The position numbers and the translations under genes are program-made. A model generated the notes under the pieces. The model was not told where the DNA came from and ran no database searches. It was given only the letters and a program-made list of their open reading frames with translations. A DNA stretch of 6,146 bases from Escherichia coli (GTDB lineage: Bacteria > Pseudomonadota > Gammaproteobacteria > Enterobacterales > Enterobacteriaceae): assembly GCF_003334355.1 (NCBI RefSeq), contig NZ_QOWP01000067.1; one strand, 5' to 3'. This document shows positions 2,607 to 3,230 of the stretch, piece by piece (the first letter of the stretch is position 1; each line of letters starts with the position of its first letter).

Positions 2607-2840
2607 CTCGTGAAAACGAAATATTCCTTTTTTTTCTTTTAATTCATGCAGTTGCGATGAAAATCGCGGCTGCGTTAGGTGTATGACCATTTTGAGGTTG
2701 AAAAATAATCAACCATGGCGGGTGATTTACGCAGGTTAAGGGGAGATCGTGACAAAAAAAGCGTTCCTCACTGTATCGTTCATGCCTGCATGAACGGGTT
2801 ATTCTTCCTGACTACAGAATTACATCGCTCCTTCAGTTCA

Positions 2841-2906
2841 TACATCACTTTTACATCACTTATACATCACTTTTACATCACTTATACATCACTTTTACAT
2901 CATTCC
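2841..2906. repeat. Iteron-like array: five perfect and one degenerate 11-bp tandem repeats TACATCACTT(T/A), i.e. a 22-bp unit repeated three times
   Basis: Copies start at 2841, 2852, 2863, 2874, 2885, 2896; degenerate flanking copies at 2821 ('tacatcgctcc'), about 2915 ('tacgtcacttt') and 2944 ('tacatcaccc'); bracketed by 'tccttcag(t/c)tcatac' at about 2829 and 2904. Confidence 0.85.
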
Positions 2907-3230
2907 TTCAGCTCATACGTCACTTTCATCCTCTGTGCCATTTGTACATCACCCCCTTCCTGAACGTGCTGACAGCGGGTTTTCCGGCTGCGCCGGCAAC
3001 GCTTCACGGCCACGCAATAAATTGCGTCCCCGTTCACCGTTTTCGGATGGGAAGAACGCCGGAAACAGGACTTACCCCGGCTGAATGGTGTGAATTTCCG
3101 CGCTATGCACTTGTGCGCATACTCATGCATGCCGTAAAAACAGAGCCTGCGCGTTTCTGGCGGGTTTTCGGGTGGTTTGTTGCCTGTTTTACCGGTTTCC
3201 CGTCAGAAACGCCCTGAGGGCCTCTCAGGC

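Follow-up and report, generated by a model that had tools for sequence, protein, structure and literature searches.

The DNA analysed here (hereafter the window; the whole stretch of 6,146 nucleotides from Escherichia coli, contig NZ_QOWP01000067.1) is a small sul2 plasmid with ColE1-type replication, and it carries an array of 11-bp direct repeats at 2810–2955. Our comparison with conjugative plasmids indicates that the segment at ~2530–2960 is very probably a diverged copy of an IncN-type oriT–stb control region (oriT, origin of transfer), because it shows colinear, same-orientation homology to the IncN plasmids R46 and L137, and that the array is the direct-repeat part of this region. By analogy with the IncW plasmid R388, and from the sequence comparisons below, we propose with a probability of roughly 0.7 that the array represents IncN-type stbDR/stbS repeats, which would be bound in trans by the StbA protein of a helper plasmid. 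The elements of the region are as follows.

2533–2606, plus strand: inverted-repeat region, putative counterpart of the IncN oriT, with GGTAATAC-TCCG-GTATTACC at 2533–2552 and TAATACCCGGGTATTA at 2591–2606
2654–2766, plus strand: conserved non-coding boxes GCGATGAAAATCGCGGCTGCGTTAGGTGTATG (2654–2685), GCAGGTTAAGG (2731–2741) and AAAAAGCGTTC (2756–2766), from alignment A1
2777–2796, plus strand: hairpin CGTTCATGC-CT-GCATGAACG, directly upstream of the array
2810–2955, plus strand: repeat array including the variant first unit
2810–2820, plus strand: variant first unit GACTACAGAAT, with an ACTACA core
2821–2955, plus strand: nine direct units with the core TAC(A/G)TCA and a 4-bp T/A-rich spacer, starting at 2821, 2841, 2852, 2863, 2874, 2885, 2896, 2916 and 2945
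2841–2895, plus strand: five perfect units, forming a 22-bp repeat (TACATCACTTT TACATCACTTA) × 2.5

Homology to the IncN oriT–stb region

The homology is directly observed. The window at ~2530–2960 is colinear with the traK–stbA intergenic (oriT) region of R46, in which inverted repeats, boxes, hairpin and repeats follow one another in the same order and orientation. In blastn comparisons, window 2628–2794 aligns with R46 20149–20313 at 69.5% identity (E 1e-4), window 2587–2794 aligns with the second IncN plasmid L137 at 70% identity (E 7e-12), and the sister sequence L007 aligns with R46 at 69% identity over 270 bp (E 6e-13). An alignment of six sequences (A1), the invariant columns of which were used for the conserved boxes, places the boxes GCTGCGTTAGGTGTAT and GCAGGTTAAGG and a TTCATGC..GCATGAA hairpin in both the window and R46, and a third box, in R46 AAAAAGCG, is likewise common to the two. 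The position of the hairpin is conserved in IncN oriT regions, as seen in R46 (TTCATGCTTGCATGAA) and in L138 (GGTCATGCTTGCATGACC).

The repeats of R46 (20319–20500) comprise 13 direct copies of TACA(T/A)CA plus 4 bp reading towards stbA, and the variant unit TACAACA is common to both plasmid groups. The R46 units carry 2 bits of information at positions 1–4, 6 and 7 and little in the spacer, and the L007 profile is nearly equal. The oriT of pCU1, another plasmid of this group, was reportedly described by Paterson and Iyer in 1992 with 13 direct 11-bp repeats. The window array thus resembles the repeats of R46, pKM101 and pCU1 in its TACA(T/A)CA core, its 11-bp period and its orientation to the hairpin, boxes and inverted repeats, with flanks that are ~70% identical. 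By comparison, the IncN array lies between traK and stbA and overlaps the stbA upstream region, whereas the window contains no traK, traI, stbA or stbB; the window also has fewer units in another arrangement, and its array sits in a multicopy ColE1 replicon with a cer-like Xer site after the repeats.

At the upstream end, a T-rich stretch and the palindrome TGTAATTACA (2572–2581) are located between the inverted repeats 2533–2552 and 2591–2606. R46 contains GTAATAC/GTATTAC inverted repeats upstream of its boxes, which match those of the window in kind, and its motif TTAGGTGT-TTTTAATACC aligns with window TTACAGTGGATTTTTAATACC in A1, so that conservation fails at the bases presumed to be recognised by the relaxase. 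Window 2533–2606 corresponds to that part of the IncN oriT which holds the inverted repeats and nic, its own nic site being putative.

Architecture of the repeat array

The anatomy of the array is likewise directly observed. The unit TACATCACTT occurs perfectly at 2841, 2852, 2863, 2874 and 2885, and in degenerate form, with one or two mismatches, at 2821, 2896, 2916 and 2945. When up to two mismatches are allowed, the window contains 11 matches as compared with 3.6 ± 2.0 in 200 dinucleotide-preserving shuffles of it, none of which reaches 11 (0/200). Tandem Repeats Finder reports a period of 11 bp at 2841–2902 (5.6 copies, 92% matches) and a period of 22 bp at 2840–2902 (2.9 copies, 100% matches), the latter corresponding to the T/A alternation. 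All units share one orientation and an 11-bp cycle in an overall arrangement of 2+6+1+1. The unit-to-unit spacings are 20 bp, five times 11 bp, 20 bp and 29 bp, so that the outer units are not strictly tandem; the units spaced at 20 bp read TACATCnnTCCTTCAGnTCA. A reading of the plasmid made earlier from its sequence alone (hereafter the sequence-only reading) had described an 11-bp array with a T/A-alternating 22-bp unit in five perfect and several degenerate copies. The shuffles and Tandem Repeats Finder bear this out, and the tandem layout that it assumed holds for the five central 11-bp intervals and fails for the outer spacings of 20, 20 and 29 bp.

Comparison with sister plasmids reveals which part of the unit is kept. 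In L007 the 7-bp core is constant and the 4-bp spacers read AAAG, AAAT or CTTT; its information content reaches 2 bits at core positions 1–3 and 6–7, which are also high in pPAB19-3, and is low in the spacers. Information in the window array also peaks in the core. Older and more varied units (TACAACA, TGCATCA and TACGTCA) are found in pPAB19-3, L005 and L008. A core held constant between freely varying spacers, as these profiles show, marks a site recognised by a protein and is not what mere slippage produces.

The five perfect units are evidently a recent local expansion, and the copy number of the array varies among sister plasmids in 11-bp steps, with matched lengths of 257 to 357 bp for a 301-bp query. 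The repeat itself is already in print: Miranda et al. 2016 (PMC4951496) noted an 11-bp unit, GATGTAAAAGT, in 3 to 5 copies in a putative 'orf3' of pCERC1-type plasmids and proposed no function for it. A coding repeat is ruled out, and neither the open reading frame (ORF) at 2715–2963 nor 'orf3' can be real, because copy-number changes in 11-bp steps would shift the frame. A full-text literature search for the repeat sequence returned unrelated primers only. Among complete E. coli genomes, the module that contains the array is present in 233 of 5,426, on plasmids every time.

Retention of the array in the backbone of small ColE1-like plasmids

Varied small ColE1-like plasmids match the window at 1460–3259 only, and the shared stretch ends exactly at the core of the Xer recombination site (3258/3259). 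The plasmids compared were pPAB19-3 with qnrB19 (2,989 bp), a 2,438-bp Salmonella plasmid, E. coli plasmids of 2,835 bp and 3,327 bp, and a ColE1 segment inside an IncF plasmid. Two features bear on this boundary.

3231–3258, plus strand: cer-like XerC/XerD core, GGTGCTGATAA-CAGATG-TTATGGTAAAT, the right-hand limit of the conserved module 1460–3259
3276–3716, minus strand: helix-turn-helix (HTH)/coiled-coil gene of 146 codons, labelled 'entry exclusion protein 1' elsewhere

Since the shared homology stops at the Xer core, these comparisons assign the array to the replicon backbone and the HTH gene, across the recombination site, to the cargo. The window core resembles that of ColE1 cer (seen in L009), GGTGCGTACAA-TTAAGGGA-TTATGGTAAAT. 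In very different small plasmids the homology ends within 1–2 bases of the Xer core, which fits cargo exchange by Xer recombination. Such exchange is said to be the model in the title of a 2012 paper by Tran et al.

The retention of the module is a direct observation: ~430 bp are kept in plasmids as small as 2.4–3.0 kb with almost nothing else. A tblastn search of the window and the sister small plasmids detected no stbA or stbB. An accessory sequence for Xer recombination was considered for the array and rejected, as the array is 275–410 bp from the Xer core and ~1,000 Klebsiella plasmids contain the cer-like region from 2951 onward but no array.

Two repeat specificities and their coupling to StbA

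Small ColE1-like plasmids carry one of two arrays at the same position, a TACATCA type (the window and L004–L008) and an ACTACA type (L010–L013). In L010–L013 the homology to the window is lost at 2817 and resumes at 2951, and between these breakpoints lies a different 11-bp array with the core (A/G)ACTACA(G/A); rop and an HTH gene come after it. The variant unit at 2810–2820 of the window has the ACTACA core that is found throughout the arrays of L010–L013 and of IncN plasmids with a second StbA variant, and a single array in L015 combines ACTACA and TACATCA units. L015 (pSTM6-275, IncHI2) contains, at 3100–4200, an IS26-bounded fragment of a ColE1-like plasmid inside a 276-kb plasmid, with rop upstream of the oriT-like region. 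After the ACTACA array, the rop stop overlaps the start of the HTH gene (L010 3250–3842; L011 5897–6510; L012 1077–1690), and this pair is located exactly where stbA lies in IncN plasmids.

The same two cores occur in the IncN group. Overall, the second StbA variant (WP_013279398) shares ~50% identity with that of R46; the C-terminal domains are almost identical and the N-terminal domains differ. In the plasmids encoding it (L138, L139 and L140), the arrays upstream of stbA are built on the ACTACA core. Between L138 and R46, identity is 96.6% from traK through oriT as far as the hairpin; the repeat arrays and the StbA N-terminal domain are then unrelated, and identity returns, at 91%, from the StbA C-terminus onward over stbB and stbC. 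In this swapped block (L138 647–1040 versus R46 20313–20648), the repeat arrays and the StbA N-terminal domain are exchanged as a single cassette. The coupling among IncN plasmids is seen directly in this exchange, which ties the repeat core to the DNA-binding domain of StbA, and not to TraK, and divides the IncN group into two StbA/repeat specificities. The breakpoint between the two types of small plasmid (window 2817, just past the hairpin) coincides with the breakpoint of the IncN swap, the hairpin forming the left breakpoint of the cassette.

A scan of genome contigs for three consecutive TRCATCA-N4 units gave, among the matches listed, mostly unrelated tandem repeats (Lachnospiraceae and other chromosomes), together with two StbA-type positive controls, L109, in which a StbA homologue lies 18 bp from the array, and L090. 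Genes for R46-type StbA are common in the same hosts, with 1,927 PLSDB records, a count of records and not of co-residence with small plasmids.

Comparison with the StbA-bound repeats of R388

In R388 (IncW), stbDR/stbS is a centromere-like site bound by StbA (PMC3098194; bioRxiv 10.1101/2022.04.29.490116). Its units consist of YTGCATCAT and a 2-bp spacer in an 11-bp cycle, arranged in two sets of five upstream of stbA, and are bound by StbA in vitro; the published units are seen directly in the R388 sequence. The repeats are needed in cis for StbA-dependent stability and for the effect of StbA on conjugation. StbA is described as PadR-like, and R388 StbA binds cooperatively.

The window array shows several features of the StbA repeats of MOBF11 IncN/IncW plasmids at the sequence level, namely 11-bp direct repeats, a core like that of units upstream of stbA, and homologous oriT–stb flanks. 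Like stbS, it consists of direct repeats with an 11-bp cycle beside oriT, and the core YTGCATCAT agrees with TTACATCAC at 7 of 9 positions; in R388 a small HTH protein binds the site in trans, and the site is needed for both stability and control of conjugation. By contrast, unit position 3 is G in nearly all R388 units and A in the window, the window flanks have no homology to R388, the R388 units form two five-unit sets around the stbA promoter, and binding is shown for R388 only.

The sequence-only reading had offered a centromere-like or incompatibility site among its explanations. Its centromere-like half is supported by the homology to the repeats upstream of IncN stbA and by their R388 counterparts, which are stbS; this term is essentially right if taken to mean a StbA site of IncN type that a small plasmid, dependent on its helper, has borrowed.

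Proposed function of the array

We propose that the array acts as the direct-repeat part of an IncN-type oriT–stb control region within a ColE1-type backbone that has neither stbA nor a relaxase gene. Each unit would consist of a 7-bp recognition core (TACATCA) and a 4-bp A/T-rich spacer, and the spacing of about one turn would bring neighbouring sites onto the same helical face. When the cell also harbours an IncN plasmid of the R46/pKM101 type, StbA from the latter would bind the units cooperatively through the N-terminal HTH domain, as does StbA of R388. The small plasmid could thereby gain StbA-dependent positioning and stabilisation, and StbA on the array would rebuild the nucleoprotein context beside the oriT-like sequence, which might permit mobilisation in trans. 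Binding of StbA to the window units, and a benefit to the plasmid, would follow by analogy with R388; we consider it reasonably probable that binding in trans has a function. Mobilisation is the weaker part of this argument.

Several observations weigh against StbA binding or mobilisation of this kind. No stbA, stbB or relaxase gene was detected in cis in the window ORFs, the annotation or the tblastn search. The context of an stbABC promoter with two sets of about five units is likewise absent from the window, in which stbA and stbB are lacking, the units are grouped 2+6+1+1 and a cer-like site follows them. For IncN plasmids, moreover, the binding of StbA to their own repeats rests on the R388 analogy and the cassette swap. 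The drift of copy number in 11-bp steps and the apparently recent five-unit expansion are also what neutral slippage would give. At the nic region, the presumed nic bases of IncN plasmids, which analogy with F and R388 places at TTAGGTGT/T in R46, are not conserved, the window having TTACAGTGGAT there. R46 AATGAGTTATTAGGTGTTTTTAATACC aligns with window TGTAATTACAGTGGATTTTTAATACC, in which the presumed GGTGT is lost; L137 and L139, both IncN relatives, show variation in this stretch too. In pCU1, nicking was abolished when the core pentanucleotide was mutated. Given this requirement and the divergence of the presumed nic bases, it is doubtful that an R46-type relaxase would mobilise the plasmid. 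In addition, Shigella sonnei donors with the sister plasmid pABC-3 gave zero transconjugants, an IncN helper not being documented in them (PMC4951496). A different helper variant may still serve, because the nic-region stretch is variable among IncN relatives.

A multicopy array could also act on the helper. Without StbA, conjugation of R388 rises about 50-fold and the plasmid becomes less stable. About ten StbA sites per copy of a multicopy plasmid would exceed the 13 sites on a low-copy IncN plasmid, and the array might soak up helper StbA as a decoy and de-repress helper transfer and leading-region genes, the small plasmid then riding along or weakening its helper; StbA would also be used for its own positioning. 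We regard this extension as tentative and rather unlikely. If it were true, the two repeat specificities on small plasmids could be seen as a tracking of helper StbA variants, and the array as a possible case of titration of a conjugative-plasmid regulator by a multicopy plasmid.

Alternative explanations

The array may instead be an inert relic, the oriT–stb region having been acquired in a single event from an IncN plasmid (a cointegrate being one possible route) and its repeats drifting neutrally by slippage as a variable-number tandem repeat with no role. Near-identical plasmids do differ in copy number by 11-bp steps (also PMC4951496), the five perfect window units are a recent duplication, no gene for the cognate protein is located in cis, and the presumed nic bases have diverged. 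Neutral drift accords poorly, however, with a 7-bp core that is invariant while the spacers have diverged, in lineages only ~80% identical overall, with at least six units kept in every lineage, with ~430 bp of the module kept in 2.4–3.0-kb plasmids that contain little else, and with the presence on small plasmids of both repeat specificities that match the two StbA variants. We therefore consider a relic unlikely. Far less likely still is a cis-acting competition or enhancer element like the 41 × 15-bp repeats of pSW200, through which RNA polymerase, engaged via –35-like hexamers, would boost RNAI/RNAII; curved DNA or a site for a host response regulator belong to the same class. The pSW200 block is a precedent for functional repeats in a ColE1-type plasmid (PMC3628316), being a short direct-repeat block that is dispensable for replication and cis-acting in plasmid contests. 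In the window, CTTTTACATC contains TTTACA, repeated at 22-bp intervals, and the A/T tracts follow an 11-bp phase. Yet the pSW200 unit is 15 bp long and of another sequence, as compared with 11 bp here, and copy number and proposed ligand (RNA polymerase) also differ. We know of no relation of the pSW200 repeats to conjugative-plasmid DNA. Hexamers of the –35 kind are missing from the ACTACA-type arrays at this position, a consensus promoter scan returned zero sites in the array, and the homology to IncN repeats accounts for its sequence with no need of an enhancer. PhoB, OmpR, RstA, CreB, ArcA and PhoP bind direct repeats phased at 10–11 bp; none of these host regulators is known to match the core convincingly, and they are superfluous given the IncN homology.

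A partner encoded on the plasmid itself was the other candidate of the sequence-only reading, in which the array is the operator or binding array of the Exc1-family HTH/coiled-coil protein (3276–3716, minus strand). In L010–L013 the ACTACA array lies directly upstream of the rop–HTH pair, in the position held by stbA in IncN plasmids, and the HTH protein there is distantly homologous to that of the window (36% identity over ~100 residues, E 1e-11). The window protein also matches NCBIfam NF038291 ('plasmid replication DNA-binding protein') weakly, at 44 bits against a cut-off of 85, and its predicted fold, a MerR-type winged helix with a long coiled coil, resembles BldC and RacA in Foldseek. 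BldC and RacA bind repeated or centromere-like sites, and RacA has the layout of a winged helix followed by a long helix. Against this pairing, the array and the HTH gene are on opposite sides of the Xer crossover that bounds the shared backbone; L004–L008 (four small plasmids and the ColE1 segment in an IncF plasmid) contain the array and no HTH homologue by tblastn; and ColE1, conversely, encodes the homologue Exc1 (61% identity) but has neither the array nor any 11-bp periodic motif. Furthermore, the ACTACA array type adjoins two HTH variants that are only 40% identical, and in IncN plasmids the repeats co-vary with StbA and not with any Exc1-like protein. Homology between StbA and Exc1 was considered and rejected (BLASTP E 0.09–0.4). 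Because this similarity is not significant and the predicted fold is MerR-like as opposed to the PadR-like fold of StbA, the adjacent HTH protein is not regarded as the partner of the array, and we rate such a role as very improbable.

The third proposal of the sequence-only reading, an iteron array or the relic origin of a second replicon, is not upheld. Its premises are correct: the plasmid has an RNA-primed ColE1 origin (RNAI, Rfam RF00106, 73.9 bits), neither the window ORFs nor the annotation of NZ_LT985307.1, an identical record, include a gene for a Rep protein, and ColE1 replication does not account for the array. An iteron-type origin is nevertheless rejected, given the absence of a Rep gene, replication of the RNAI/RNAII type and homologous arrays upstream of stbA beside oriT in IncN plasmids; the homologous DNA is oriT–stb and not oriV, and no linked Rep gene was found at any locus examined. 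Rep-dependent iterons and R1 parC resemble the array in their phased direct repeats, on which their plasmid proteins bind cooperatively on one helix face. By comparison, Rep and ParR/ParM genes are absent here, and the homologues of the array are at oriT–stb rather than at replication origins.

Relation to known plasmids

StbA-type and IncN oriT repeats, small plasmids with oriT only (PMC10123127) and the polymorphism of repeat copy number (PMC4951496) are already known, and surveys of E. coli recognise an oriT family termed 'R46-like' (PMC10123127). No earlier assignment of the array or of the ~430-bp region to IncN oriT–stb, in p9123/pCERC1 or qnrB19 plasmids, was found in the searchable literature, outside which lie key subscription papers that may hold a prior description; nor did that literature yield a report of two StbA specificities mirrored on ColE1 plasmids that lack stbA. 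The oriT-only 'pOriT' plasmids are similar in being small and relaxase-less and in carrying transfer-origin DNA of a conjugative family. The window differs from them in that it is best conserved in the StbA-repeat part and not at the presumed nic bases, and in having a separate ColE1-type bom at ~2267–2303.

The p9123/pCERC1 family (sul2, strAB, dfrA14 and tetA) and the small qnrB19 plasmids are globally spread carriers of resistance, earlier called non-mobilisable or mobilisable via the ColE1-type bom only. An IncN-type oriT–stb region in their backbone would link them, in a testable manner, to one helper family and one helper protein, a regulator of segregation and conjugation. The cassette swap, in turn, offers natural evidence on which part of StbA reads the repeats.

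Other features of the plasmid

Bases 1–60 of the window recur exactly at 6070–6129, and the overlap runs to the window end; the window is therefore a circular molecule read beyond its own start. The identical record is plasmid RCS86_pI of E. coli ECOR 4 (NZ_LT985307.1, 6,069 bp). This plasmid falls in the p9123/pCERC1 family, small sul2 plasmids with ColE1-type replication that Branger et al. 2019 (PMC6807383) named 'relaxase-negative RNA type 1'. Its further features are listed here.

356–1171, minus strand: sul2
1509–1610, minus strand: RNAI, ColE1-type (the Rfam match given above)
~2267–2303: bom sequence, ColE1/pBR322-like, read directly from the sequence
2360–2509, plus strand: 49-codon ORF (WP_001138880), conserved and annotated in nearly all sister plasmids
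After the glycine-rich ORF 3934–4323: ISCR2/ISVsa3

Two unrelated transfer-origin-like sequences, the ColE1/pBR322-type bom (2267–2303) and the IncN-type inverted repeats (2533–2606), thus lie ~250 bp apart, and the plasmid encodes no relaxase for either. The ORF at 2360–2509, a putative gene, has no DNA-binding domain, and its only resemblance is a weak one (E 0.012) to the acidic C-terminal tail of the antitoxin MazE.

The HTH protein has 444 relatives, mostly unnamed or labelled 'entry exclusion protein 1', a name that appears to be historical. A Pfam search with it gave nothing significant, and sequence and profile searches of the PDB returned coiled-coil noise only. Its AlphaFold model, built from 21 sequences with a mean predicted local distance difference test score of 83.6, consists of a beta-helix-helix-beta-helix domain (residues 1–50) and a single long helix (70–142). 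In Foldseek, the N-terminal domain matches the MerR-type winged helices of SoxR, CvkR, GlnR, BldC and RacA, with root-mean-square deviations of 1.3–2.0 Å over ~48 residues and E values of 0.02 or weaker.

Farther along, the LexA-box-like sequences TACTGTATATAAACACA and ATAAATACAGT are located at 3866–3898, upstream of the glycine-rich ORF 3934–4323, which stops where ISCR2/ISVsa3 starts. These LexA-like boxes and the truncated ORF look like an SOS-regulated promoter and the 5' part of a colicin-like bacteriocin gene interrupted by the sul2–ISCR2 insertion. ColE1 shows a matching order of cer, exc1 and colicin promoter.

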